DNA of 26,455 bases from a virus. Under the pieces are notes generated by a model that had not been told where the DNA came from, made no database searches, and was given only the letters and a program-made list of their open reading frames with translations. The translations under genes were made by a program, and so were the position numbers. The first letter of the stretch is position 1, and every line of letters begins with the position of its first letter. The stretch lies in the UHGV virus genome UHGV-0075053; one strand, written 5' to 3'. Positions 1,497-24,393 of this stretch are shown here, piece after piece.

Positions 1497-3623
1497 TTAA
1501 TCTTCTTCGCTTTCTGGCTGGAACATCAGCACGTAAAAAACATGCTGCTTCCCCCCAATTTTGCCGAGCGCCTTTTTCTTGTAACGGCGATCGTTACCCG
1601 CTTCCAGCATTCCGGCAGCACTCAACGCGCGGGCAAAGTGAGACGGATTAAATCCCTGTGCTATCTCACCCTCAAATACATGCGGGAACGTGTAAAAACG
1701 GAACTCGTCATCTTCGTTTCTGATACTCCCCTTTCTGTATCCGGCAAGCTCTTTAATCGGTAAATCACGCTCGTCAGAGTTGGGCCAGGGAAGGTATCTG
1801 CTGAATCCGAACGACGCTAAAAAAGCCTCTGCCTGTTCAACCATCTGTTTAAACTCCCTGTTACCCGTGCCGAACTCCTTCACCCAGGCATTAAAATTAT
1901 GCTGTATGGCATCGCGGCATTCCTGCTCATCCCAGCCAGTAACATGACCTGAAAGCACAAGCGCGGCCTCCAGTATGGCAAATCGCTCCCCCACACGGTG
2001 AACCTGTTCGCCGTAGCTCTCCGGTATCAGGTTGCGCCACCGCTCACGGCATGTCCTTACCGTGTCCTTTGCCTCCTGCTGGTGTTCTGCCAGCCATTTA
2101 ACCCACTCACGACCCGCCGCCCCGTGATTTGCTGTCCAGGCATCCTTTAACGCGTCTGCGTGCGCCTTTCCGGTGCTGTATTCGTGAAATTGCGTGGCTT
2201 TTTCCATCGGAACGTTAAGCAGGCGGACAAGCTGCCCCGCTTTGACTTTTATCCCCTCCGTTTTGAGGAATGTCTCAACGTCCATTTCTCCGGTGCTGAT
2301 TGCCACCGTTCGCCAGTGTTTTATCTCCCTGTTGCCGCCGTCCTTTGCCCCCTGTAATTTCCCGGAACCGTTAAACAGCGTATAGGCTGACGTGGACACC
2401 TCCCGCGCGTTTCCGGCCTGGCCTATTTCATCCAGGGGTAAAAGCCCGTCATTGTGTGCCTCTGCTTCGTTGGCGATACCTAACGCTGTGCCGTACCAGG
2501 TCAGCCGCTGCGCGTCCGGCTCTCCCCATAAACTTGATGCGATGTTCTGCGTTGTGGTCTTACCTGCCGATGACTGTTCGAAAAGATGTACCCCGAAGCC
2601 GTCAGCGCCCACCAGCCCGATTAATGGTGCGGATAACGATACCGCCACCCCCAGCATCATGGACGGATTACCACCAGCCAGTCGCGCCACGGTGTCGCGC
2701 CAGCCCTCCGCCGTTCCTGCCACGGAATAGCCATTAACAGCAGCAGTTTTTCCGGTAAACAGGACTGGCTTTTCGCAATCACCAATGACCGAACCGTCCG
2801 GCATGATGTACGCGCCAAAATGCCAGCCCGTTGTTGTGCTTAACTGCCATTCCTCATGGCTTCCGCTTAACTGCATCCAGTCAGCCAGGATTGCCCTGTA
2901 TTTACCGTTGGTTGTTACGTTCAGTCCGTGGTCTTTCAGCAGCCGCCAGCCGTCACGGTCGCCAATGCCACCGCACGGAACCGCCATTGTGATGACTTCA
3001 TGATTTGCTGGCTTTTTCCAGCGCATCACGCGGTAATGTTCTTTGCCGATTGTCCCCGTTCCCAGCAGTTCAAGCGGGGAACATAACCACGTCTCAGGCC
3101 GGATAATTTCGCCTGACTGCTTGTCCACTTTTGGCGTAACCCAGAAAACACCATCGGCGCGGCTTTCAACGCGGGGCTTTAATTCATCATCACCCGGGCT
3201 TTCTGTGATTTTTTTCTTTAAGGGCAACACCAGACTTTCCCCGCGCTCGTATTCGTCTTTGAGGCGAGGCAACTGGTCGGATAAATCCGCCGGGCTGGTG
3301 TCAGTTATCCCCGCGTATTCGTATACGGTCTTCACGCCAGCCACAGCCAGCAACGTGACGATCTGTGTAAGGCTACGTTCAGTGATGTGCCCTGCGCGGT
3401 AAATACGCACACACTGACGGCTATCATCAATAATTTGATAACCGGTAATATCTTTCAGGTGTTCATCTGACAGAACGACAGGCGGCACATTGTCGGCGGC
3501 AATATGCTTACCTGCCCATTCCTGCCACTCTTTCGCATGGCTCCACGCATCACTACCCGCAAAGATGATAACCTCCGTCATTTTGTCGGCTGGCTGGTGC
3601 TTTAAGTTTGGTGCGCGCTTCAT
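1497..3623 (-). CDS. primase/helicase-type replication protein of mobile elements (DUF927-like with P-loop)
   Basis: 708 aa; Walker-A-like SSAGKTTTQ; overall resemblance to primase-helicase proteins of E. coli integrative elements (from memory); start ATG overlaps the upstream gene stop (ATGA). Confidence 0.7.
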   Translation of the reverse strand: MKRAPNLKHQPADKMTEVIIFAGSDAWSHAKEWQEWAGKHIAADNVPPVVLSDEHLKDITGYQIIDDSRQCVRIYRAGHITERSLTQIVTLLAVAGVKTVYEYAGITDTSPADLSDQLPRLKDEYERGESLVLPLKKKITESPGDDELKPRVESRADGVFWVTPKVDKQSGEIIRPETWLCSPLELLGTGTIGKEHYRVMRWKKPANHEVITMAVPCGGIGDRDGWRLLKDHGLNVTTNGKYRAILADWMQLSGSHEEWQLSTTTGWHFGAYIMPDGSVIGDCEKPVLFTGKTAAVNGYSVAGTAEGWRDTVARLAGGNPSMMLGVAVSLSAPLIGLVGADGFGVHLFEQSSAGKTTTQNIASSLWGEPDAQRLTWYGTALGIANEAEAHNDGLLPLDEIGQAGNAREVSTSAYTLFNGSGKLQGAKDGGNREIKHWRTVAISTGEMDVETFLKTEGIKVKAGQLVRLLNVPMEKATQFHEYSTGKAHADALKDAWTANHGAAGREWVKWLAEHQQEAKDTVRTCRERWRNLIPESYGEQVHRVGERFAILEAALVLSGHVTGWDEQECRDAIQHNFNAWVKEFGTGNREFKQMVEQAEAFLASFGFSRYLPWPNSDERDLPIKELAGYRKGSIRNEDDEFRFYTFPHVFEGEIAQGFNPSHFARALSAAGMLEAGNDRRYKKKALGKIGGKQHVFYVLMFQPESEED

Positions 3624-3934
3624 TTTGCCTTTCTCCGTTCACGAATAATTTCACGTACTGCCTTAATGCGTTCCATACCTGTAACGCGCATGATTCTGTC
3701 GATGTCGCTTAAGTTCGCTGGTGGTGCTTTGCTTACCAGGGTGAATTCACTCTCAAAACGCATATGTGACGACACGCAGGGATGCGCATAACCTTCGCGG
3801 ATATAGGTCACGCGAAAATCATCGACGGTTTTAATCGTTATCGTGCTGCCGTATTTATCCTGGAAAATATCGCCGGGGCGGATTTCAGGCCGAGCGGAGC
3901 CGCTGGCAGTAAAGCCAGAATTTTTCTTTTTCAT
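3620..3934 (-). CDS. hypothetical protein (104 aa), translationally coupled to the primase
   Basis: ORF with ATGA overlap onto the primase start; GGAG-type RBS; no recognisable motif. Confidence 0.5.
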   Translation of the reverse strand: MKKKNSGFTASGSARPEIRPGDIFQDKYGSTITIKTVDDFRVTYIREGYAHPCVSSHMRFESEFTLVSKAPPANLSDIDRIMRVTGMERIKAVREIIRERRKAK

Positions 3935-3940
3935 GTTTTT

Positions 3941-4159
3941 TTACTCCAGAGGCCGCTTTTTAGCGAAGAGTTCAATATCAGATGTCAGAGAAACCTGTGT
4001 ATTTGCCAGGTCTAACAACAAAGAAATAAGAATTTCCTCTCTGCTATCTGATTTATCGGTGCTAAGGCTGTTCATCCACATATTGACGACTTCCCTGATT
4101 TTTTTCGCAGAGTGCATGGCTTCAAATGCCAGGTCTTCAATATCATGTTTATTTCGCAT
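3941..4159 (-). CDS. hypothetical small protein (start uncertain, 72-94 aa)
   Basis: ORF in the same operon; internal Met at 4159 gives minimal overlap with the upstream gene. Confidence 0.4.
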   Translation of the reverse strand: MRNKHDIEDLAFEAMHSAKKIREVVNMWMNSLSTDKSDSREEILISLLLDLANTQVSLTSDIELFAKKRPLE

Positions 4160-4361
4160 AATCGCCCCCGCGTAACTGGTCTGCACTAACACCCGATTTA
4201 GTGAGCATTTCAGAAAATCCCGCAAGAGTGCTGATAAATTCGTTTTCCATTAAACGGCACTGGCATTTAACCCGGCCTTTTTCCAGATACACCAGTACGC
4301 ACCCCGTATAATCTGACGGCACATTCAGCACTACAGATAAGTGCGCTTCATTATTATTCAT
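4149..4361 (-). CDS. hypothetical small protein (70 aa)
   Basis: ORF in the minus-strand operon; start overlaps the stop of the upstream gene. Confidence 0.4.
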   Translation of the reverse strand: MNNNEAHLSVVLNVPSDYTGCVLVYLEKGRVKCQCRLMENEFISTLAGFSEMLTKSGVSADQLRGGDYAK

Positions 4362-4590
4362 GGCTCACCACCTCCATATCAGCCATGATAATTTTGCTGG
4401 CCTCATTCAGTGCCATATCAGCACTAAGTTGCATTACAGCCAGTGAATGAGGAACGAAAGCCCCGGCATATTCTGTTTCGCTGGTGGCGTGCTTATGCGC
4501 CTTGTCTGCGATAACAGAAATATCAATCAGCGCGTGCATCAGCGTTTTGATGGCTTCGGCGGCTGCGTCCGGACGGGTGTTATTGCACAT
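4354..4590 (-). CDS. hypothetical small protein (78 aa)
   Basis: ORF in the operon; its ATG at 4588-4590 overlaps the stop of the upstream 68-aa gene. Confidence 0.45.
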   Translation of the reverse strand: MCNNTRPDAAAEAIKTLMHALIDISVIADKAHKHATSETEYAGAFVPHSLAVMQLSADMALNEASKIIMADMEVVSHE

Positions 4591-4786
4591 GGAGCACCCC
4601 CTGACGAATACGGGCGGCGAATACCATCACGCAGCCAGCCGGGGATTGCTGGCGTGCTTCCTGTTCGCTGGTGGCCACGATGTGAATCACGCGCGGTTGT
4701 GCGGTGCTCAGGGCGATAAAACGCCAGATGTATTTATTCAGGTTGTGCGAGTCCCGCCCTTGCGGGTGTGTGGTATGATTTCTCAT
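4580..4786 (-). CDS. hypothetical small protein (68 aa), first gene of the leftward satellite operon
   Basis: ATG at 4786 preceded by GAGGT RBS; located just downstream of the palindromic operator region; the longer 301-aa ORF-track version is judged an artefact. Confidence 0.5.
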   Translation of the reverse strand: MRNHTTHPQGRDSHNLNKYIWRFIALSTAQPRVIHIVATSEQEARQQSPAGCVMVFAARIRQGVLHVQ

Positions 4787-4863
4787 AGCTACCTCGATAC
4801 TCTTGCTATCGTTGGTGGTTAGACGCCCTGCATGTGTTGCGAGCACTGCGGGGCGTTGCTTAA

Positions 4864-4964
4864 TTTGAGTGACAAAACTCAAACTGTGCGCACAGATTAA
4901 AATCATGTGTGCGCACATGTCAATACTTAACATCTCATTTTTTTTGCTGTATTGTGTGCGCCCA
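4864..4964. promoter_or_regulatory. divergent promoter/operator region with TGTGCGCACA palindromes
   Basis: 7-bp inverted repeat TTTGAGT-N6-ACTCAAA (4864-4883); 12-bp perfect palindrome CTGTGCGCACAG (4884-4895); second TGTGCGCACA core (4908-4917); degenerate copy TGTGTGCGCCCA (4953-4964); between divergent genes at 4786 and 4992. Confidence 0.6.
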
Positions 4965-4991
4965 TAAAGTCCATTTAAGTGAGGTGCATCA

Positions 4992-5189
4992 ATGTCTAGC
5001 GGTAACACAAACAACAAATCAGCAAAGAAAAATATTCGATTCCCACATGAGCTTATAGATGGGATTGATGCCAGCGTTGAACAAGAAAAATTAACTAATC
5101 CTAGTGCTAATTTTTCCGCATGGGTCTTAGATGCCTGTGGACGCAAATTAAAATATGAACAGCGCCGGAAGGCCAAAGAATCAGAATAA
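4992..5189 (+). CDS. ribbon-helix-helix (Arc/CopG-like) putative transcriptional regulator
   Basis: 65 aa; KNIRFPHELIDGIDASV...ANFSAWVLDAC fits a beta-strand plus two-helix RHH pattern; GTGAGGTG RBS 6 nt before ATG; directly downstream of the palindromic operators. Confidence 0.55.
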   Translation: MSSGNTNNKSAKKNIRFPHELIDGIDASVEQEKLTNPSANFSAWVLDACGRKLKYEQRRKAKESE

Positions 5190-5231
5190 TCACTATCAGC
5201 GCCGTGGTGTGAGTAACTACGGCGCATTGCT

Positions 5232-5420
5232 ATGCAGGACAACACAATGACCGATAAAGAATTGACCAAAACATTATCACCGACACGGAAAAGACGGCGC
5301 AGAAAGATAGAGCATGAATCAGAAAGATTCGCACCTTGTTCGTTTGCTCTTGAGAAATTCCTTAAAGAGCGCAGGAAAAAGCTCTCGTTGCAAACCTTGG
5401 AACGAACCAAATCTGACTGA
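5232..5420 (+). CDS. hypothetical small basic protein (start 5232 or 5247)
   Basis: ORF downstream of the RHH gene on the same strand; Arg/Lys-rich; no recognisable motif. Confidence 0.35.
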   Translation: MQDNTMTDKELTKTLSPTRKRRRRKIEHESERFAPCSFALEKFLKERRKKLSLQTLERTKSD

Positions 5421-5611
5421 TCACATTGCCCACCAGCCGCAAATGTGGCATTGTTGGTGATGCTTTTGTTTTCCCTTGTTCCCACTGGCTACCCTTTTGC
5501 GGTCGCCTTTGTTTTGCCTGTTATCCGGCAATAGTGGCGCTTCGTCACCTGTCTGATATAATTCCACTGCTTATATTCATTTTTTGCGCAGTAGGTTAAT
5601 TGTTCGCAAGG

Positions 5612-5642
5612 GCGCTCCGGCAACGGGGCGCTTTTTGTTTTT
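5612..5642 (+). terminator. rho-independent terminator
   Basis: Stem GCGCTCC/GGGGCGC with 6-nt loop followed by TTTTTGTTTTT. Confidence 0.55.
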
Positions 5643-5800
5643 ACCCACCAGCACAATAAAAATCTTCATTTTCCATTTTTGTAAAATTTCATGCTTTCCG
5701 GACGACTGGTCATATGTCATTTTTTAGCAGAAGATTTTGCCTTGCTGGTGGGTAGCTTCCCGGTCAACACGATGTACCGTATAATCAACACCGCGTGTGG

Positions 5801-6382
5801 TTACTGAATACGCTCACCAAAGTAAAACTCAGGCTGGTATTCACGTATCAGCCTTTTTTCTTCTTCCTCCAGCTCACGCTTTTTGCGCTTACATGCCTGT
5901 AGCTCCCTCCCCTTCTCGCTGGCACTTATCTGATATTGCTCTTTGCGGCGGGAAAAATCCTGTAATGCGCCCCACGGGATACCATAAGCCCCCGTTTTTC
6001 TGATACCCGGTATCACATTTCTGAATACCCAGTTACTGAAACGATGGGCGAACGTGCCAGGAGTAGCAGCTTTGCGACTTCTGGCAATCAGCTTGTAAAA
6101 GCCAGATTCAGAAACGACGCTATGATTTGGATTTCCGCGAATACCGTAAGTTAAAGTTACGGTATTACTTTCATCATCATCCAGAGCTTGCAACGCCATG
6201 CGTGAATTGGATAATTCAAGCGCCGCACAAACATCCTTTGCAACAAACCACGGATCGCCGTTCAGATACACCACACGAACATCCACGCCATCAAAACGTA
6301 GAACGACCTGATCACGAATATCGCAGAATTTTTTCACTGGACGTGCATTCCCCTTGCCCATCATGGCAATATTTTTATTCAT
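5801..6382 (-). CDS. Bro-N domain protein (phage antirepressor-like)
   Basis: N-terminal VRVVYLNGDPWFVAKDVCAALEL motif typical of the Bro-N family; ATG at 6382 with GAGGTAG RBS (ORF-track start at 6385 is GTG). Confidence 0.65.
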   Translation of the reverse strand: MNKNIAMMGKGNARPVKKFCDIRDQVVLRFDGVDVRVVYLNGDPWFVAKDVCAALELSNSRMALQALDDDESNTVTLTYGIRGNPNHSVVSESGFYKLIARSRKAATPGTFAHRFSNWVFRNVIPGIRKTGAYGIPWGALQDFSRRKEQYQISASEKGRELQACKRKKRELEEEEKRLIREYQPEFYFGERIQ

Positions 6383-6401
6383 CACTTTCTACCTCACATA
6401 C

Positions 6402-6439: not shown

Positions 6440-6718
6440 TTACTTATTGGCGTTTTTGTATGGGCTGTTTACTTCCTTTACTCCTGGCGGATGCATAACC
6501 CACCAGAGCACATCAGAGAGCAACCAGGAAACAGACACTTTCCCTAAATGAGCACGAGCAGGAAATGCTCCCTCCTGTTCAAGTACCCAACGTCTGCTTC
6601 TTGAAAGCCCGGTACGATTGGCACACTCATGTTCGCGTATACGGCGATCATACGGTTCGCCATGCTCTTTCAGAATCTGAATGCGTTCTTCGGGTGTAGG
6701 ATAAATAAATTTTTGCAT
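6440..6718 (-). CDS. AlpA-family DNA-binding protein (second copy)
   Basis: ECANRTGLSRSRRWVLEQEGAFPARAHLGKVSVSWLLSDVLWWV resembles the AlpA/Phage_AlpA HTH pattern; start taken at ATG 6718 because the ORF-track start 6748 overlaps the upstream terminator. Confidence 0.55.
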   Translation of the reverse strand: MQKFIYPTPEERIQILKEHGEPYDRRIREHECANRTGLSRSRRWVLEQEGAFPARAHLGKVSVSWLLSDVLWWVMHPPGVKEVNSPYKNANK

Positions 6719-6730
6719 AAAAATATCACC

Positions 6731-6758
6731 TATAAAAAAACCCGCCAAAAGACGGGTT
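6731..6758 (-). terminator. rho-independent terminator (minus strand)
   Basis: Stem AACCCG/CGGGTT with 8-nt loop; T-run on the minus strand. Confidence 0.5.
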
Positions 6759-6781
6759 GATTATATCTCATTTAATTTAGC

Positions 6782-7015
6782 TCAGGGTTTCCATTCACCC
6801 TTTACCCATTCCAGCACCTCAGATAAGCGCCAGACTTTTGTTTGTGGGCCAATACATATTTTTCGTGGAAATTTTCCTTCCTTTTCAAGTAACGATCTGT
6901 GTCTCCTGCCAAGAGCGGTTAACCATGCACATTCATCTTCCTTAATCATCCTGTCGATTGTTTTATCATTTTCAAGTTCTTCACGCGTAACTATTTGAAT
7001 CATTACCGTCACCAC
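6782..7015 (-). CDS. AlpA-family regulator adjacent to the integrase (start uncertain: 7015, 7003 or 6949)
   Basis: ECAWLTALGRRHRSLLEKEGKFPRKICIGPQTKVWRLSEVLEWV matches the AlpA pattern; position immediately downstream of int as in P4-like islands. Confidence 0.6.
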   Translation of the reverse strand: MVTVMIQIVTREELENDKTIDRMIKEDECAWLTALGRRHRSLLEKEGKFPRKICIGPQTKVWRLSEVLEWVKGEWKP

Positions 7016-8204
7016 TAATTAGCTTATTCAGATAGTCATACCACCAATTCATAGCTTCTTTTTTTCTGTCCATATACTGGCTTCTGTTATAAACCCCGGC
7101 AACACCGCCTAATGTGTGCCCAAGCAACTGTTCAACCACATTATGTTCAAAACCATGATCACTTAGCTTTGTGGCAAACACTCTTCGCATATCATGCGCC
7201 GTCCATTTCTCCGAGTGTTTCATCCTTTTCCATGTCTTACCGATAGTTACGCTTGCCGTACACTGACGCATATCAAACCCAATCACATTTTCTTTGTTAC
7301 CTGTTATTTTTTTTAACGTAACTAACCAGTTAAACATGCCATCAGGAATCGGTCTGATTATTTCCCTGCCATTTTTGCTATGATCAGCGGGAACGCGCCA
7401 TAATTTCTTATCAAAATCCCACTCTCCCCAGGAGGACAGTAATACTTCTGACAGTCGACAACCAAAAACTACCAGGAAACGTAAAATAATTCGGTTTTCA
7501 TATGATAATTCGTGATTGTCATAATCAGTATTAATACTTCGCCATAAATCTCTGATTTCATCATCTGTTAAAACCCTGCTTCTTCGCGCAGACTTTTTTC
7601 CCACATCACAGACCTCAAGATCATCAATTTCATGACTAATCGCGTATTTTCTTACCCGACAAAATTTAAGCGCCTGTTTTGATATACGCAACAAAGCTCC
7701 GGCCTGTACAGGTGCTACTTTTTTTATTTTGTCAAAACACTTGATCCACATAGATATAGAGCAATCACTAAGTGGTACATGACCAATCACCGGATAAATA
7801 TGTTTACCAAAGCACTGCCTGATATGTTCTGCTCCCCTACGCTTATCCATTGCATAATTATCAAGCCAGTATTCAAGTGCCTCACGAACGGTAACAGGTT
7901 GCAAGGTGGCTTCCCGTTCAATTTTTATCTGAATCCGTGGATCTCTGCCCTCCGCAAGCCAGGTTCGACACTGATCGCGCATCTCTCTCGCTGATTTGAG
8001 ACTCAGATCAGGATATTTCCCAAGTGTCAGCCAGATGGGCGCGGTTCCCCTTCCCGCCAGTCTGTAAAAGAAAACAAAACTAACACATCCGTATTTACTG
8101 ACCCGTACCGAAAGCCCGTTACCATCAGCGATGGTTTCCTGCCTCTCACTCCTGCGCCCAAGCAGGGAACGAAGTTTTTTATCGCTCAGTTTGTTTAGCG
8201 CCAT
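6981..8204 (-). CDS. int: tyrosine integrase, P4-like
   Basis: N-terminal arm-binding pattern (LSDKKLRSL...GNGLSVRVSKYG...FVFFYR), C-terminal catalytic region with HxxR-like LLGH and conserved Tyr context; start set to ATG 8204 (MALNKLSDKK). Confidence 0.85.
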   Translation of the reverse strand: MALNKLSDKKLRSLLGRRSERQETIADGNGLSVRVSKYGCVSFVFFYRLAGRGTAPIWLTLGKYPDLSLKSAREMRDQCRTWLAEGRDPRIQIKIEREATLQPVTVREALEYWLDNYAMDKRRGAEHIRQCFGKHIYPVIGHVPLSDCSISMWIKCFDKIKKVAPVQAGALLRISKQALKFCRVRKYAISHEIDDLEVCDVGKKSARRSRVLTDDEIRDLWRSINTDYDNHELSYENRIILRFLVVFGCRLSEVLLSSWGEWDFDKKLWRVPADHSKNGREIIRPIPDGMFNWLVTLKKITGNKENVIGFDMRQCTASVTIGKTWKRMKHSEKWTAHDMRRVFATKLSDHGFEHNVVEQLLGHTLGGVAGVYNRSQYMDRKKEAMNWWYDYLNKLISGDGNDSNSYA

Positions 8205-8209
8205 GTGAT

Positions 8210-9403
8210 TTATAACCCGTTTTTGCAATACACAGTGCAATACACAAATGATGAAAACAGCCAGAACCTTCCAGAAAAAACAAAAACGACGAACAAGAAA
8301 AAATCTTTTTCTTTCATTTGGTTACTAAAAAAATCAGGACAGGTCGCACTGTTGTTACGGCGTGATGTTACTTTCTTGGTAAAAAAATTCACCCGCGCAG
8401 AGACCTGCTCCTTCGCTTTTTTCGCCAGACGACGCAGATCATCCCAGCGTTTACAGATGCCCAGGCCAGGATTCGCTTTCTGCCAGACCGTTTCATCAAA
8501 CGGATCATCTCCCTCATCAAGCGTGTAAATGATCGCAAAGTAAGAGTCGTCTTTTACAGCGCCCTCCACGTCGCTGTTATAGCCTCGCAATACCTTGATG
8601 GCGTAATCACGCTGCTCGTAACAAATCCCTTCCTTGTTAAAGCCAGCCGTGGTGATACCAAATAACAGGGACTGCAGACGGGCACCGGTTGCCGTTTCCA
8701 GAACGTCCCACACGTCGCGGGTTTTATGTGCATGCAGCTCATCAATAATGGCGCAGTGGATGTTCAGACCGTCCAGGTTGTTTGCATCCGAGGAAAGCGG
8801 TTCAAATTTTGATGCGCTCTGCTCCTGGTAAATCGCCAGCTTGTTGAAATCAAACAACCGCCCGAGTGTCGACCGGGCTTTTCTGACCATATTTTTGGCG
8901 TCTTCAAACACGATTCTGGCCTGGTCAAGCGTGGTTGCGGCTGAATACACCTCAGCTCCGCCTTCACTATCTGCCCCCGTCATATACAGACCGATACCCG
9001 ATGACAGGGTTGATTTTGCGTTTTTACGGGCAACTTCGTTGTATGCTGTCCGGAACCGGCGCACCATCACCGGGCGTCCACTGCCATCGCTGCGCATGAC
9101 AACTTCCCCGGTTTCTTCATTCACCAGCGGAATGACAAAACCAAAAATATTAATGAGGATAAACACATGCCAGTCCATCAACTCAATGGGCTGACCTGCC
9201 AGCGCCCCTTTCACATGGGGTACAAATTTGTAGAAATTAAGGATGTGCTGTGCACGAGGTTCACTGAAATAAATCCCCCGCTCTTCGCCGTACTTCAGAT
9301 CATCAAGAAAACGCTGGCAGGCCAGACGGACAAATTCGCCAGCAACAATTTCTCCTGCAACAACACGTTCGGCGTAGCGGATCCCGTCAGCCACTTTTGC
9401 CAT
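8210..9403 (-). pseudogene. terminase large subunit, N-terminal ATPase portion only (C-terminally truncated)
   Basis: N-terminal ~340 aa look terminase-like; the last ~55 aa (about 8210-8400) are low-complexity read-through; full-length TerL would be far longer; ends next to the integrase gene. Confidence 0.7.
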
Positions 9404-9885
9404 CAGTCTCTCGCTTTTAAAAGCTCTGCCAGCGGATCAACATCATCCGGTCCGGCGGTATTTACTTTCGCCCGGCTTGCCGGTGACATACCAAACTCTG
9501 CAAGCATCGCCCGAATCCGCTTCCAGGCATCAGCCTTCATCGCAGCAGCCGGGTGTGCCTTGATCAGCACATCGCCATTCTGCGTTTTCGTGCGGTAGGT
9601 ATAACCCTCAACATCGAGTATTTCGCAGTGATGCCGGTATTCGGTGTAGGCTTCCACCAGTAACTCGAGCGCACGTGCATCGAGCTGAGAAATGATCCCT
9701 TCCGCATTCAGCTCTTCCGCCATTCGCCTGAACCAGTACTTCCCCTGCGCCCCTAAATGTTGCGGAATTTTAGGGAGACCTTTTTCATCCTTTTTAGCGG
9801 TTTTTTTGAGGTCTTTAACTGGCCGCTTTGAGGGGTTGCCTCGTATCAAATGCAGGCGTGGCGGGATTTTCGGGGGTCCAGACAT
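9403..9885 (-). CDS. terminase small subunit (phage P27-family-like)
   Basis: 160 aa, position immediately upstream of and overlapping terL by 1 nt; basic N-terminus; family assigned from memory. Confidence 0.65.
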   Translation of the reverse strand: MSGPPKIPPRLHLIRGNPSKRPVKDLKKTAKKDEKGLPKIPQHLGAQGKYWFRRMAEELNAEGIISQLDARALELLVEAYTEYRHHCEILDVEGYTYRTKTQNGDVLIKAHPAAAMKADAWKRIRAMLAEFGMSPASRAKVNTAGPDDVDPLAELLKARD

Positions 9886-13151: not shown

Positions 13152-13226
<75 letters not shown>

Positions 13227-13342
13227 ATCCTGGAACTCGGCTACCTGATTTTCATTCTGCACTGAATATCGAGAGAAGCTCTCTTTATTCGAGCCGGTAA
13301 GCGAACTTATCGTCTCGGGCTACGCCATCGCGTGGCCGAAAT

Positions 13343-13427
<85 letters not shown>

Positions 13428-13435
13428 GGACTTGA

Positions 13436-13511
<76 letters not shown>

Positions 13512-13513
13512 AC

Positions 13514-13590
13514 TGGACCGCCACCGGGGACTCGAACCTCGCACACTCAACTTAAAGGGTTGACGCTCTTTCCTGATGAGCTAGTGGCGG
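13514..13590 (-). tRNA. atypical tRNA-like gene, anticodon UUU (Lys-like) with unusual anticodon loop CCUUUAA
   Basis: Cloverleaf can be drawn: acceptor CCGCCAC/GTGGCGG, D-arm GCTC/GAGC, anticodon stem TCAAC/GTTGA, T-loop TTCGAGT, 3' CCA; but C at position 33 and an A-C mismatch in the T-stem are non-canonical. Confidence 0.45.
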
Positions 13591-13591
13591 T

Positions 13592-13667
13592 TGGTGGCCC
13601 TTGCTGGATTTGAACCAGCGACCTGGCGATTATGAGTCGCTCGCTCTCACCACTGAGCTAAAGGGCC
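13592..13667 (-). tRNA. tRNA with CAU anticodon, ileX/ileY-like (tRNA-Ile2 type; Met not excluded)
   Basis: Reverse complement GGCCCTTTAGCTCAGTGGTGAGAGCGAGCGACTCATAATCGCCAGGTCGCTGGTTCAAATCCAGCAAGGGCCACCA resembles E. coli ileX from memory. Confidence 0.7.
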
Positions 13668-18345: not shown

Positions 18346-18501
18346 TTACTCCTCAGGTTCGTAAGCTGTGAAGACAGCGACCTCCGTCTGGCCGGTTCGG
18401 ATTCGTACCTCGCAGAGGTCTTTCCTCGTTACCAGTGCCGTCACTATGACGGTTAAACAGATGACGATCAGGGCGATTAACATCGCCTTTTGCTGCTTCA
18501 T
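18346..18501 (-). CDS. hokD: Hok/Gef-family small membrane toxin (HokD/RelF-like)
   Basis: MKQQKAMLIALIVICLTVIVTALVTRKDLCEVRIRTGQTEVAVFTAYEPEE matches E. coli HokD from memory; start set to ATG 18501. Confidence 0.9.
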   Translation of the reverse strand: MKQQKAMLIALIVICLTVIVTALVTRKDLCEVRIRTGQTEVAVFTAYEPEE

Positions 18502-19125
18502 AGCCTGCTTCTCCTTGCCTTTCGGCACGTAAGAGGCTAACCTAGATTTGCCGTTCATAGATTGAGCCTCAGATTAATGTTAAGCGTCTTGCAGGACGCG
18601 TAATGTTAACTGGGGCTTTTCTCTATCTGCCTTTGGTGTTCATGCCTGAGACAGATAGCCTCAAGCACCCGCAGCCATTCTACTTAACTCCCGTTACCTC
18701 GCCAATATAAAATCAATCAGAAAAGCGATCCATAAGAACAACAGCAAGACAATAAATTGCCATTACAGCTGCAATAGCCAGCGCACATTTGAGAACCAGC
18801 ACGACAACCTCCTGTATTGGACGTACACCAGTTCTGATAAATATGAGGCTGTCTCATCATTGATGAGATACAACTATTGGGTATAGTTTCTGTGATTTTG
18901 TTCTGTAGAAATGGAACACAACAACCAGTCACCACCAGCACTTCTTTAAATACGCCAAGTCCGACGCAAGCTAACCTTCTAGTCCGCTTTGAGCGAAAAG
19001 CAGACTGTCACGCGTTGAAGTTAATTGTATTACTTAGATAAACACTATCATTTTCCTGACGTTAAGTTGTATCTTTGATAGGATTAAAAAACGTATAGAT
19101 AGCTTATGCTACTGAGGGAATAAAA

Positions 19126-24013: not shown

Positions 24014-24342
24014 TAGCTAACCAACGAAGCTAAGGTTGGTAATTAAGGAGTTCTCCACGGGTGAAGTGGAGTGCGTGCGCCGGACACGGGTGAACATCCG
24101 GCACTGACAGTTTACTGAAAGGATATTTCTCTGAAAAGTCAGAGCATAACGCGAAAGTACACGGAGAAGCTCGTCTCTCTGTACTTTGTCGTTAAATTTA
24201 ATTCGACCGTGCGCTTCCGGTTGTGGCAATCCGCGAAATGGCGCGGCGGTAAGTATGGCGGGGTTATTCCTTCCCCTTGAGGACACCGGGTTGTCAGGCT
24301 GACCATACGCTTAAGTGACAGCCCCGCCACAATATCCATGTG

Positions 24343-24393
24343 TAGTCTTTGGTGGCATCAGTTCTACTCCGTGACTGCTCTGCCGCCCTTTTT
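24343..24393 (+). ncRNA. dicF: DicF small RNA (ends approximate)
   Basis: GGTGGCATCAGTTCTACTCCGTGACTGCTCTGCCGCCCTTTTT matches the 3' part of E. coli DicF including its terminator hairpin (from memory); about 175 nt upstream of dicB. Confidence 0.65.

Follow-up and report, generated by a model that had tools for sequence, protein, structure and literature searches.

In satellite P4, the left operon (kil ... epsilon–orf151–alpha primase) carries small accessory genes in front of the primase, and its immunity is RNA-based. In the nin region of lambdoid phages, small genes follow one another with overlapping stop and start codons, and mosaic exchange takes place at the gene boundaries. In the immI region of phage P1 (c4 RNA–icd–ant1/ant2), icd is ATGA-coupled to the next gene and was described as "required for expression of ant". 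E. coli PICIs and cf-PICIs, such as EcCIEDL933/CP-933C/O-island 51 (z1835–z1843, including rgdR) and EcCICFT073 with c1493, possess an early part composed of int, alpA, (BRO), a divergent small regulator, an Icd-like gene, small ORFs, a DUF4222 gene and a replicase gene, next to which ssb and perC are found and, in cf-PICIs, capsid and packaging genes (PMC3378721; 10.1101/2022.09.08.507074). A DUF4222 protein, RgdR (ECs1581), is a regulator of type III secretion and motility in E. coli O157; its DNA binding is non-specific, and it affects the expression of LEE1 and motility (PMC3378721). The prophage-encoded programmed-cell-death locus of E. coli ECOR61 comprises six genes, among them an Icd-like gene, small overlapping genes and a primase gene; the Icd-like gene, whose annotation includes an N-terminal extension, is required for toxicity, and orf24 is the trigger (Silas et al., bioRxiv 10.1101/2023.04.06.535777).

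The early gene order of the E. coli PICIs was found in the window, i.e., the whole analysed stretch of 26,455 nucleotides of the UHGV virus genome UHGV-0075053. Its array of five small genes (4786–3620, minus strand) can be assigned by gene content to the known E. coli PICI early-operon type, with a middle cassette set and order of its own: the window has g2-g3-g4, whereas A3 or E cassettes, fusions or tandem copies occur in other E. coli islands. In contrast to these islands, the window also has a replicase of the DUF927 type and an island located inside a prophage terL gene, and unlike the RgdR islands it encodes a g5 of the 104-aa RPGD subtype instead of the 99-aa RGD RgdR subtype. The array resembles the ECOR61 locus in its Icd-like gene, small overlapping genes and primase, and P4 in having small accessory genes 5' of the primase in one early satellite operon. 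It shares overlapping small genes and boundary mosaicism with the nin region; however, the gene families are unrelated and the linkers of the window, unlike those of nin, carry the next Shine–Dalgarno sequence inside the last ~6 codons of the previous gene. As in P1 immI, a structured leader precedes an Icd-type first ORF whose end overlaps the beginning of the gene after it, and with such an overlap the downstream expression would depend on Icd translation. Unlike in P1, small ORFs and a primase gene, not an antirepressor gene, lie downstream.

Reading frames of the array

The initial annotation had described five small genes of 68–104 aa leading into a satellite primase gene, and these were confirmed as ORFs on the minus strand (Table 1). 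The five ATG-initiated ORFs of at least 60 aa covered 98% of 1181 nt of the operon strand, while the mean coverage in the shuffle control was 19% and none of 1000 dinucleotide shuffles reached 90%. A purine-rich Shine–Dalgarno sequence was located 5–9 nt 5' of each start in the array. For g4, a TTG in the ORF listing provides an alternative start, giving a longer form of 94 aa.

Table 1. Positions of the small-gene array, its primase partner and its control region in the window
Feature	Position	Strand	Description
g1	4786-4580	minus	68 aa, pI 11.3, Icd-like; first ORF of the operon
g2	4590-4354	minus	78 aa, pI 5.1 (acidic), family A1
g3	4361-4149	minus	70 aa, family A2
g4	4159-3941	minus	72 aa from ATG, acidic, helical, distant member of family D
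g5	3934-3620	minus	104 aa, pI 10.0, DUF4222/RgdR family; last small gene
primase gene	3623-1497	minus	708 aa, DUF927 primase/helicase; downstream partner in the same operon
leader RNA	4787-4889	minus	~100 nt, three hairpins; transcription start inferred from the -10 box
divergent promoter/operator region	4885-4964		defined by repeats and sequence
YlcI/YnfO-family (DUF3950) gene	4992-5189	plus	divergent; 65 aa, pI 9.3; candidate repressor

The overlapping, ATGA-type coupling proposed previously stood only in part. Three junctions do overlap, by 11 nt for g1/g2 (ATGTGCAATAA), 8 nt for g2/g3 (ATGAATAA) and 11 nt for g3/g4 (ATGCGAAATAA), but a gap of 6 nt lies between g4 and g5, and ATGA is present only at the g5/primase junction. 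No terminator-like sites were found on the operon strand within the array, and the earlier view of the array and the primase gene as one unit was supported.

The same genes were annotated by PGAP in 13 E. coli loci, and HMM families (Pfam, PHROG, NCBIfam) were found for four of the five, while the plus-strand ORFs of the region (3843–4175, 4447–4719 and 4484–4822) had no Pfam family match. The dN/dS values were below 1 for g1–g5 and their families at dS up to 1–2, which indicates that the genes are under purifying selection. A loss of the frames in related elements, raised at the outset as an argument against the genes, was not seen; they are kept in many islands with a dN/dS of about 0.15–0.6 (up to 0.89 for g1). 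Judging from these signatures, the array ORFs are real genes and not chance ORFs.

Gene families and cassette order in related islands

The statement that none of the products has a recognisable motif had to be withdrawn, as g1 matches NF033153, g5 matches DUF4222 and g2 and g3 match PHROG families. The g1 product matched the NCBIfam model NF033153 (phage_ICD_like) at residues 19–62 with 71.2 bits (cutoff 25, E 5.5e-20) and phrog_6196 at 3e-44, and a pairwise BLASTP with phage P1 Icd gave 37% identity over 43 aa (E 4e-7). Based on the HMM and on this identity over 43 residues, g1 appears to be a distant homologue of P1 Icd. In a tblastn search with g1 against the whole phage collection (E 1e-3), P1 and P4 were not reached and the single match was the cf-PICI-like "phage" vB_KppS-Ant. 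Counterparts of g1 in other E. coli islands show 85–97% identity to it, and dN/dS was 0.17–0.89 in 11 comparisons. By analogy, g1 may arrest host cell division, an activity known for P1 Icd only. A 301-aa ORF (4580–5485, minus strand), considered as a long N-extended Icd, was rejected; its sole conserved stretch is antisense to ylcI, the remainder corresponds to the promoter and leader, and it has no Pfam or PHROG coverage beyond 25 codons 5' of the g1 ATG.

The g2 product matched phrog_5146 at 2.4e-38, and its homologues formed 232 clusters, all "hypothetical", with E. coli and E. albertii as the listed sources; dN/dS was 0.27–0.52 in 13 comparisons (dS up to about 1). The AF2 model (pLDDT 76), with helices at residues 9–37 and 42–77, predicts a two-helix hairpin protein, for which a fold search against PDB returned no significant match. 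Similarities to ATP synthase c subunits and the DesK DHp domain were set aside as uninformative, being generic helical hairpins at E ~1 or more. The g3 product, a small alpha/beta protein, matched phrog_340 at 3e-17 and had only 6 close homologue clusters, with 21 representatives obtained by exhaustive phmmer. The g3 domain is tandemly duplicated or fused in two relatives (L008_4 and L009_3), and in another protein (P0245), 43% identical over 58 aa, it is joined to a CHC2 zinc ribbon of the DnaG type; within the family, dN/dS was 0.15–0.30. Matches of g3 to long TPR, NB-ARC and repeat proteins (P0236, P0240, P0246 and P0248) were judged to be repeat-summed chance, because the Pfam domains there are TPR or InlB repeats.

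Conservation of g4 could be followed in four orthologues ~95% identical, where dN/dS of 0.26–0.67 is based on 7 substitutions only. A profile of other members of family D matched g4 with an E of 3e-8, and in the family dN/dS was 0.24–0.38. A family D gene lies directly 5' of the DUF4222 gene in 12 of 13 arrays (the window and 12 E. coli loci) and directly 5' of the primase gene in vB_KppS-Ant. A PDB sequence search (phmmer) with all five array proteins gave nothing at E <0.5. The products of g2–g4 are small acidic accessory proteins, the best guess at their role being the binding of host or replication factors.

The g5 product matched Pfam PF13973 (DUF4222) at residues 16–67 with 66 bits (cutoff 27) and has a Tudor/KOW-like barrel fold. 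Its counterparts in other E. coli islands reach 96% identity, but its identity to RgdR-type proteins is only ~50%. The RGD tripeptide at residues 20–22, important for RgdR activity (PMC3378721), is absent from g5, which reads R19-P20-G21-D22; RPGD is the norm of the DUF4222 family and TRGD a minority subtype. In two 99-aa relatives (L008_7 and L012_6), the RgdR variant positions 10, 20, 27, 35, 45 and 61 mostly equal those of ECs1581 or of C1493, the positions and the orthology of C1493 to ECs1581 being taken from PMC3378721, where phenotypes of the RgdR type are reported for these two proteins only. The ATGA coupling of the DUF4222 gene to the replicase gene is invariant in all 16 related loci. 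The g5 protein may bind nucleic acid or a polymerase, which would explain both the fixed link with replication and the pleiotropic transcriptional effects of RgdR. A common origin of the N-terminal domain of the replicases, instead of a functional link, could also account for the adjacency, since all three replicase types share ~100–160 N-terminal residues.

All array families recur in related E. coli islands. A search of genome contigs with g5 yielded 3 loci only, and the comparison was therefore based on E. coli RefSeq loci. About a third of complete E. coli genomes (1829 of 5426 with a match) contain arrays of this kind. The window and 12 E. coli loci have a fixed layout, in which an Icd-like gene is followed by 1–5 shuffled cassettes, a g4-like gene, the DUF4222 gene and the replicase gene, and this layout holds across three replicase types. 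The Shine–Dalgarno/ATG/stop linkers at the junctions are conserved. Because each linker places the next Shine–Dalgarno sequence within the end of the previous gene, the protein tail changes with the downstream neighbour.

Island type and control region

The primase matched Pfam DUF927 at 5e-46 and phrog_1139 ("DNA primase") at 7e-174, and its dN/dS versus close relatives was 0.04–0.10. Together with int (6981–8204) and two AlpA genes (6440–7015), the primase gene displays the PICI order. The window ends ~1.5 kb past the primase gene and the capsid/packaging module was read in relatives L001 and L002, which have the same int–terL junction and primases 99% identical. In L002, int, alpA (two copies), BRO, ylcI, icd and small genes are followed by DUF4222, pri, ssb, perC, MCP, protease, portal, connectors, HNH, TerS and TerL genes; in both relatives the module lies in a 15.5-kb insert devoid of tail and lysis genes. 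Thus, the proposal that the element is a phage satellite was supported and could be narrowed, the gene order together with the module of the relatives pointing to a probable cf-PICI, inserted in terL of a lambdoid prophage. The attachment core is the 7-bp TTGGTAA. A 21-nt repeat, GCAATACACAG(T/C)GCAATACAC, near both island ends was rejected as the core, as excision there fails to restore terL. No psu, delta or sid gene was annotated in the complete L002 island, and by this annotation the element does not belong to the P4-like satellite type; it also differs from P4 in g1, for which the above tblastn search gave no P4 match.

The promoter and operators noted previously upstream of the array are real sequence features. 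The minus-strand promoter consists of a -35 TTGACA (4923–4918), a 16-nt spacer and a -10 TTTAAT (4901–4896), as in a near-consensus sigma-70 promoter. Palindromes TGTGCGCACA, regarded as candidate operators, are located at 4885–4894 and 4908–4917, with a degenerate copy TGTGCGCCCA at 4955–4964. In 13 loci, the -35 box is invariant in the same alignment column, whereas the operator palindromes differ between loci. The divergent ylcI product matched NCBIfam NF041551 at 3.5e-16 and also Pfam DUF3950. Operators are identical in the window, L001 and L010, where YlcI is 100% identical, and loci with YlcI only 33–38% identical have other palindromes. This co-variation of the YlcI protein sequence with the operator sequence points to the YlcI/YnfO-like protein as the likely repressor of the operon. 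No functional study of YlcI, YnfO or DUF3950 was found in the literature.

In Gram-negative PICIs, AlpA and not a YlcI-like repressor is at the top of induction (10.1101/2022.09.08.507074), which counts against a YlcI-repressor scheme.

Single-sequence folds of 12 leaders and RNAalifold predicted three hairpins in the leader, HP1 (~4884–4863), HP2 (~4855–4823) and HP3 (~4816–4791). Five pairs of HP2 showed compensatory changes in RNAalifold. HP3 is invariant and, in the predicted fold, pairs with the g1 Shine–Dalgarno sequence GAGGT (4795–4791). The operon had no Rfam match at the gathering score, and at E up to 5 only chance-level matches (mir-27, snoRNA and similar) and no C4 RNA, the antisense RNA controlling icd in P1, were obtained for 3400–5900. 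Without a C4-family match the regulatory analogy to P1 is incomplete, and control in the window appears to be exerted by protein operators, not by antisense RNA.

Role of the operon and alternative explanations

On the framework of real genes, their families, operon architecture, conservation, cassettes and operator–regulator co-variation, the array is probably a derepressible, translationally coupled early operon of a cf-PICI serving host takeover and replication; we infer every biochemical activity in it. Positions 4786–3620 would form the promoter-proximal part of the cf-PICI early/replication operon, held off in the integrated state, most likely by the divergent YlcI/YnfO-like small basic protein. 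A helper phage would derepress it, giving a single mRNA with a structured leader that hides the first Shine–Dalgarno sequence, and ribosomes would be passed from gene to gene via the overlapping Shine–Dalgarno/ATG/stop linkers as far as the primase gene. The Icd-like g1 may arrest host division during island replication and, as a leader ORF, its translation may license downstream expression as in P1. The g2–g4 genes would supply small acidic accessory proteins from cassette families shuffled, duplicated and fused between islands. The basic g5 with its Tudor/KOW-like barrel, always directly 5' of the replicase gene and translationally coupled to it, would bind nucleic acid or polymerase.

Alternatively, the unit of six genes, from the Icd-like gene to the primase gene, might primarily be a phage-sensing abortive-infection or superinfection-exclusion module, in which the operon is turned on by a protein of the infecting phage and the cell is then arrested by the Icd-like product with the help of its small neighbours, to the benefit of the population and the resident elements. 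In ECOR61, whose layout is the same as that of the window, cell death is set off by orf24, an accessory gene of a phage, transposon insertions that suppress it lie in the Icd-like gene and the next two small overlapping genes (QOYT01000045.1 9309–9675, 9131–9317 and 8940–9132), and removal of the Icd-like gene abolished toxicity (10.1101/2023.04.06.535777). However, the ECOR61 small genes differ in size (62 and 64 aa) and are like g2–g4 by layout, the transposon insertions are polar and leave the effector not pinned down, and the same phenotype would be expected if a phage protein simply induced a satellite. Moreover, PADLOC-DB searched at E up to 0.01 returned no family for g1–g5, ylcI, primase, ssb or recombinase. 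We regard such a module as unlikely, though worth serious consideration; it does not exclude the early-operon explanation.

The initial annotation favoured helper-interference, derepression or anti-defence functions, but the families of g1 and g5 point instead to division inhibition and an RgdR-type regulator. For g2–g4 (perhaps g5), helper derepression similar to that by P4 epsilon, interference with helper packaging or inhibition of host immunity could still be considered on account of their position, analogous to epsilon/orf151 5' of alpha in P4, of small acidic proteins in rapidly shuffled, duplicated and fused cassettes typical of accessory or counter-defence genes, and of an "ash family" gene at the array head in some related islands (e.g., L007). 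Nevertheless, g2–g4 had no match to Ash/epsilon-type or any other Pfam families at E up to 0.1 and none in PADLOC, the cf-PICI prototype was reported to act without helper interference (10.1101/2022.09.08.507074), and the g4-like and g2-like genes, at dN/dS ~0.3 and in a fixed position, are more like core functions than exchangeable cargo. These roles thus seem rather improbable.

Equally doubtful is the view of g5 (possibly with others) as a "moron" selected for its effect on the host, an RgdR-type regulator that would tune virulence, motility and surface properties from the integrated island, independent of the satellite cycle. RgdR on OI-51/CP-933C activates LEE1/type III secretion and represses motility, deletion of OI-51 lowered excretion by sheep and deletion of ecs1581 lowered type III secretion (PMC3378721). 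OI-51/CP-933C (14.93 kb, P4-type genes) appears to be the cf-PICI prototype EcCIEDL933 (15.4 kb), an identity that we infer from size, strain and gene content and that is stated in neither paper; PerC-family regulators are carried on the same islands. The low identity of g5 to RgdR-type proteins and its RPGD in place of RGD at the critical position speak against this view, as does the frequency of DUF4222 genes in strains without LEE (PMC3378721), and the invariant ATGA coupling favours a function in the life cycle of the island itself.

In a further reading, which we also hold to be improbable, the array consists of diversity-generating cassettes, whose ~20-nt linkers both couple translation and recombine, doubling as a phage-triggered arrest switch of the ECOR61 type, with DUF4222 acting on RNA polymerase or the replicase. 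Were this true, satellites would be able to combine different small proteins directed at host or phage, encoded 5' of an unchanging g4-like/DUF4222 gene pair, and the Icd-like effector and primase would belong to a phage-triggered cell-arrest (abortive infection) unit. Finally, untranslated ORFs, in a long leader or by chance 5' of the primase gene, would fit the very few substitutions between close g4 orthologues, but this is close to refuted by the ORF coverage that no shuffle reached, the dN/dS below 1 in every family, the correct Shine–Dalgarno spacing at every start, the HMM families and the plus-strand ORFs lacking Pfam families.

In PICI and cf-PICI satellites, which carry virulence and defence genes from strain to strain, the replication operon begins with arrays of this kind. 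In E. coli O157, type III secretion, motility and the colonisation of animals are affected by a DUF4222 member, RgdR, and in strain ECOR61 a similar locus brings about cell death in response to a phage accessory protein. Together, the gene starts, cassette families, the pairing of g4-like, DUF4222 and replicase genes and the pairing of operators with YlcI provide a parts list for satellite takeover and switch-on.

Five coupled small genes upstream of the primase

The minus strand upstream of the DUF927 primase gene carries five small genes (g1–g5), whose open reading frames cover 98% of the array region on the operon strand, compared with a mean of 19% in 1000 dinucleotide-preserving shuffles of that region, none of which reached 90%. 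A Shine-Dalgarno sequence of the GGAGG or GGGGG type precedes each start (g1–g5 and primase) by 5–9 nt. The overlaps amount to 11 nt (g1/g2), 8 nt (g2/g3) and 11 nt (g3/g4), and 6 nt lie between g4 and g5. The coupling of the ATGA type ascribed to the whole array in the initial annotation turned out not to be uniform, as ATGA occurs at the g5/primase junction only. For g4, a longer form starting with TTG was also possible in the mechanical ORF list; ATG is used in all annotated relatives. No terminator-like sites were found on the operon strand inside the array.

The array was compared with 15 related loci, 12 annotated ones from E. coli and three from other Escherichia and Pseudocitrobacter species. 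Apart from the dN/dS values of the individual genes (see the table), ratios of 0.15–0.30 were obtained within the g3-like cassette family (A2) and of 0.24–0.38, at dS of 0.45–2, within the g4-like family (D). These values indicate that the small genes are coding and under weaker constraint than the primase. For all E. coli relatives examined, the RefSeq annotation contains the same frames as g1–g5. The earlier view of the small ORFs as genes was borne out, since the frames were not found to be missing from related elements, as checked through dN/dS and the RefSeq annotation.

Features of the window and, where indicated, of the related locus L002
Feature	Coordinates	Strand	Product	dN/dS	Remarks
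Serine recombinase (Resolvase + HTH_7)	32-694	plus	220 aa		just past ssb; probably variable cargo of the island
Primase	3623-1497	minus	708 aa	0.04-0.10 (close relatives)	follows g5
g5	3934-3620	minus	104 aa	0.20-0.76	
g4	4159-3941	minus	72 aa	0.26-0.67 (only about 7 substitutions)	
g3	4361-4149	minus	70 aa	0.16 (against the Escherichia ruysiae orthologue, L005)	
g2	4590-4354	minus	78 aa	0.27-0.52 (13 comparisons, dS up to about 1)	
g1	4786-4580	minus	68 aa	0.17-0.89 (11 comparisons)	
Long open frame	4580-5485	minus	301 aa		crosses the promoter, antisense to ylcI, in frame with the Icd-like gene
Leader RNA	4787-4889	minus	~100 nt		three hairpins in every island folded (12 islands)
YlcI/YnfO-family gene	4992-5189	plus			divergent from the operon
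BRO-N antirepressor-like gene	5801-6385	minus			after the AlpA pair, between integrase and divergent regulator
AlpA-family genes, two in tandem	6782-7015 and 6440-6748	minus			
Integrase	6981-8204	minus			
Tandem repeat GCAATACAC(A)G(T/C)GCAATACAC	8225-8245; L002 5832-5852, 21119-21139				just inside both island ends
TTGGTAA, 7-bp core	8376-8382				same core as L002
terL, N-terminal part	8383-9403	minus			terminase likeness ends beside the island integrase
tRNA cluster, five genes	13155-13667				host prophage
sok antitoxin RNA (hok/sok type I toxin-antitoxin system)	18496-18670				host prophage
DicF sRNA	24337-24388				host prophage

At the internal junctions GGGGG or GGAGG stands 7–9 nt before ATG and the preceding gene stops 5 or 8 nt inside its successor, so about six residues at the end of each protein depend on whatever gene comes next. 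The C-termini of g2-type proteins read EVVSHE, QGAHHA or ENGGGDYAK, varying with the downstream cassette, and an identical GGGGGCGATTATGCGAAATAA precedes g4 with g3 upstream in the window or a g2-type gene upstream in the related locus L001. The shared linkers and context-set tails place the beginning of the exchange unit roughly 20 nt ahead of each start codon. Judged from the sequence, such a unit would agree both with translational coupling and with recombination at short shared linkers.

Recurring architecture and families of the small proteins

Small proteins from the window and from the 12 E. coli loci were grouped by clustering. All 13 arrays followed one plan, in which an Icd-like gene comes first and is followed by one to five cassettes, a g4-like gene (12 of the 13 arrays), a DUF4222 gene (all 13) and a replicase. 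The middle cassettes, belonging to the A1 (g2-like), A2, 'MRDDRF' (A3) and a fourth (E) families, occurred in variable order and some were duplicated or fused. Of 5426 complete E. coli genomes, 1829 had a match to the array, in most cases a partial one that took in the ends and not the middle. In loci L003–L015 the replicases are annotated in three ways, as DUF927, P4-family primase or RepA helicase; these and the window primase have in common the N-terminal 100–160 residues (36–59% identity), a domain which in the related loci always comes after the DUF4222 gene. A g4-like gene also lies directly 5' of the primase in a Klebsiella-type capsid-forming phage-inducible chromosomal island (cf-PICI) deposited as 'phage vB_KppS-Ant'.

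By HMM, g1 belongs to the Icd-like family, scoring well above the cutoff of the NCBIfam 'phage_ICD_like' model, and an alignment of 43 residues with phage P1 Icd shows 37% identity (E 4e-7). The annotation of P1 calls icd a cell-division inhibitor and 'apparently required for expression of ant'; the gene shares an ATGA overlap with ant1. The 301-aa frame that includes g1 was rejected as a real gene; it looks like a shadow ORF because its sole conserved stretch mirrors ylcI. Such long frames are called 'Icd-like' or hypothetical in some public records, e.g., vB_KppS-Ant 8578-9552.

The g2 protein matched phrog_5146, with 232 homologue clusters, every one named 'hypothetical'; its predicted structure is a two-helix hairpin, for which no significant structural neighbours were found. 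The g3 protein matched phrog_340 and has few close relatives. Its domain of about 55 residues is present as a tandem duplicate in the 121-aa proteins of L008 and L014 and fused to other cassettes in L009 (197 aa). In P0245 (134 aa, representative library) a DnaG-type CHC2 zinc ribbon is joined to a g3-like domain (43% identity over 58 residues), a fusion hinting at a link between the g3 family and priming or, failing that, at a place next to primase genes in other elements. The g4 protein belongs, as a distant member, to a helical family (profile E 3e-8). Proteins g2, g3 and g4 are acidic (pI 5.1–5.7), and g1 (pI 11.3) and g5 (pI 10.0) are basic. None of g1–g5 matched the PADLOC defence models or, by sequence, solved structures.

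The g5 protein carries Pfam DUF4222, the family of RgdR (ECs1581), a 99-aa protein from O-island 51/cryptic prophage CP-933C of E. coli O157:H7 (PMC3378721). LEE1 and type III secretion are activated by RgdR, which also represses motility and shows non-specific DNA binding (PMC3378721; PMC10877973). The 99-aa DUF4222 proteins of L008 and L012, to which g5 is about 50% identical, have the residues reported in RgdR and the orthologous C1493 (A10, R20-G21-D22, Q27, K35 and R61); g5 has R19-P20-G21-D22 and lacks the RGD motif. As 'PEIRPGD' was nearly invariant among 35 g5 homologues, the RGD form is a minority subtype. PF13973 was present in 105 of 105 g5 homologue clusters, and all source names given were Enterobacteriaceae.

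Promoter, operators and leader RNA

In the alignment of 13 upstream regions the -35 element (TTGACA/G) was invariant at one column, and island-specific palindromes were located at three places: between -35 and -10, just past -10 and near the ylcI start. The palindrome of the window is TGTGCGCACA; other islands have GTGTAAGACAC, GTGGGCCACAC, GGAATCCAG and TACGTACGTAAC. Identical operators and a 100% identical YlcI-like protein are common to the window, L001 and L010, and the other palindromes occur in islands in which this protein is just 33–38% identical. Such co-variation of operator and protein suggests that the YlcI/YnfO (DUF3950) family is the island repressor, which binds the operators and exists in several immunity types. 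The N-terminus of the YlcI-like protein (KKNIRFPHELIDGID) gives the impression of a ribbon-helix-helix strand; a search for functional literature on the family found none.

Of the leader hairpins, the second (HP2) shows compensatory changes at five pairs that maintain the stem and is retained in L009 despite an entirely different sequence, and the third (HP3) is invariant and pairs with the Shine-Dalgarno sequence of g1. An invariant single-stranded CUAACCACCAAC lies between the hairpins. The leader matched no Rfam family, including the C4 RNA located upstream of icd in P1; unlike in P1, where icd is under C4 control, control of this type was not found in the window.

The island within the prophage terminase gene and the role of the array

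The operon is surrounded by the integrase, two AlpA genes, the BRO-N gene and the divergent YlcI/YnfO-family gene, which identifies the element as a satellite. Most related islands have a single AlpA gene and many lack BRO. At the position of the serine recombinase, L001 and L002 have a PerC-family regulator and hypothetical genes.

The primase of L002 (E. coli strain 10) is 99% identical to that of the window. Beyond it, L002 encodes ssb, perC and then the major capsid protein, protease, portal, head closure/connector proteins, HNH, TerS and TerL, a gene order that is the cf-PICI layout (10.1101/2022.09.08.507074); the window ends before this capsid/packaging module. A lambdoid prophage makes up the window from about position 8383 onward; it contains terS, HNH, five tRNA genes, sok and DicF. 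The terL fragments of L002 align to reference TerL residues 6–311 and 307–528, and the in silico removal of 15,519 bp between the two TTGGTAA cores of L002 (5751-21276) restored an intact 585-aa TerL. Judged by L002, the element is a probable cf-PICI, inserted within the large-terminase gene of a lambdoid prophage. A query spanning the int–terL junction was matched over at least 80% of its length in 20 complete E. coli genomes. A terL attachment site for cf-PICI was not found described in the accessible literature. The GCAATACAC tandem repeat was rejected as the crossover core, since the TTGGTAA cores restore TerL; it may be an arm-type binding site of the integrase. As long as the island stays integrated, packaging by the host prophage should be blocked.

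One derepressible promoter with a candidate repressor, a structured leader and five coupled small genes run into the cf-PICI replicase. Helper-phage induction would relieve the repressor; Gram-negative PICIs need AlpA for induction (10.1101/2022.09.08.507074). The g1 protein would halt host division and open the coupled reading train, g2–g4 might modulate host or replication factors and g5, always joined to the replicase, might bind nucleic acid or polymerase.

The main rival explanation is a dedicated abortive-infection module. Cell death in E. coli ECOR61 is triggered by a phage accessory protein, suppressors were located in an Icd-like gene and in the pair of small overlapping genes after it, and the effect was reconstituted only with all six linked genes, the primase included (10.1101/2023.04.06.535777). 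The phenotype may reflect a dedicated abortive-infection role or simple satellite induction. The ECOR61 data lend such units functional backing from an independent source.

The array of the window is the standard head of a PICI/cf-PICI replication operon. The cf-PICI prototype EcCIEDL933 (15.4 kb; 10.1101/2022.09.08.507074) is presumably the counterpart of OI-51/CP-933C (14.93 kb; PMC3378721); if so, the z1835–z1843 fragment of the latter has rgdR where g5 stands in the window. The array type is widespread; what is new in the window is the way in which known cassette families are combined, together with a DUF4222 protein of the RPGD type and a DUF927 replicase.
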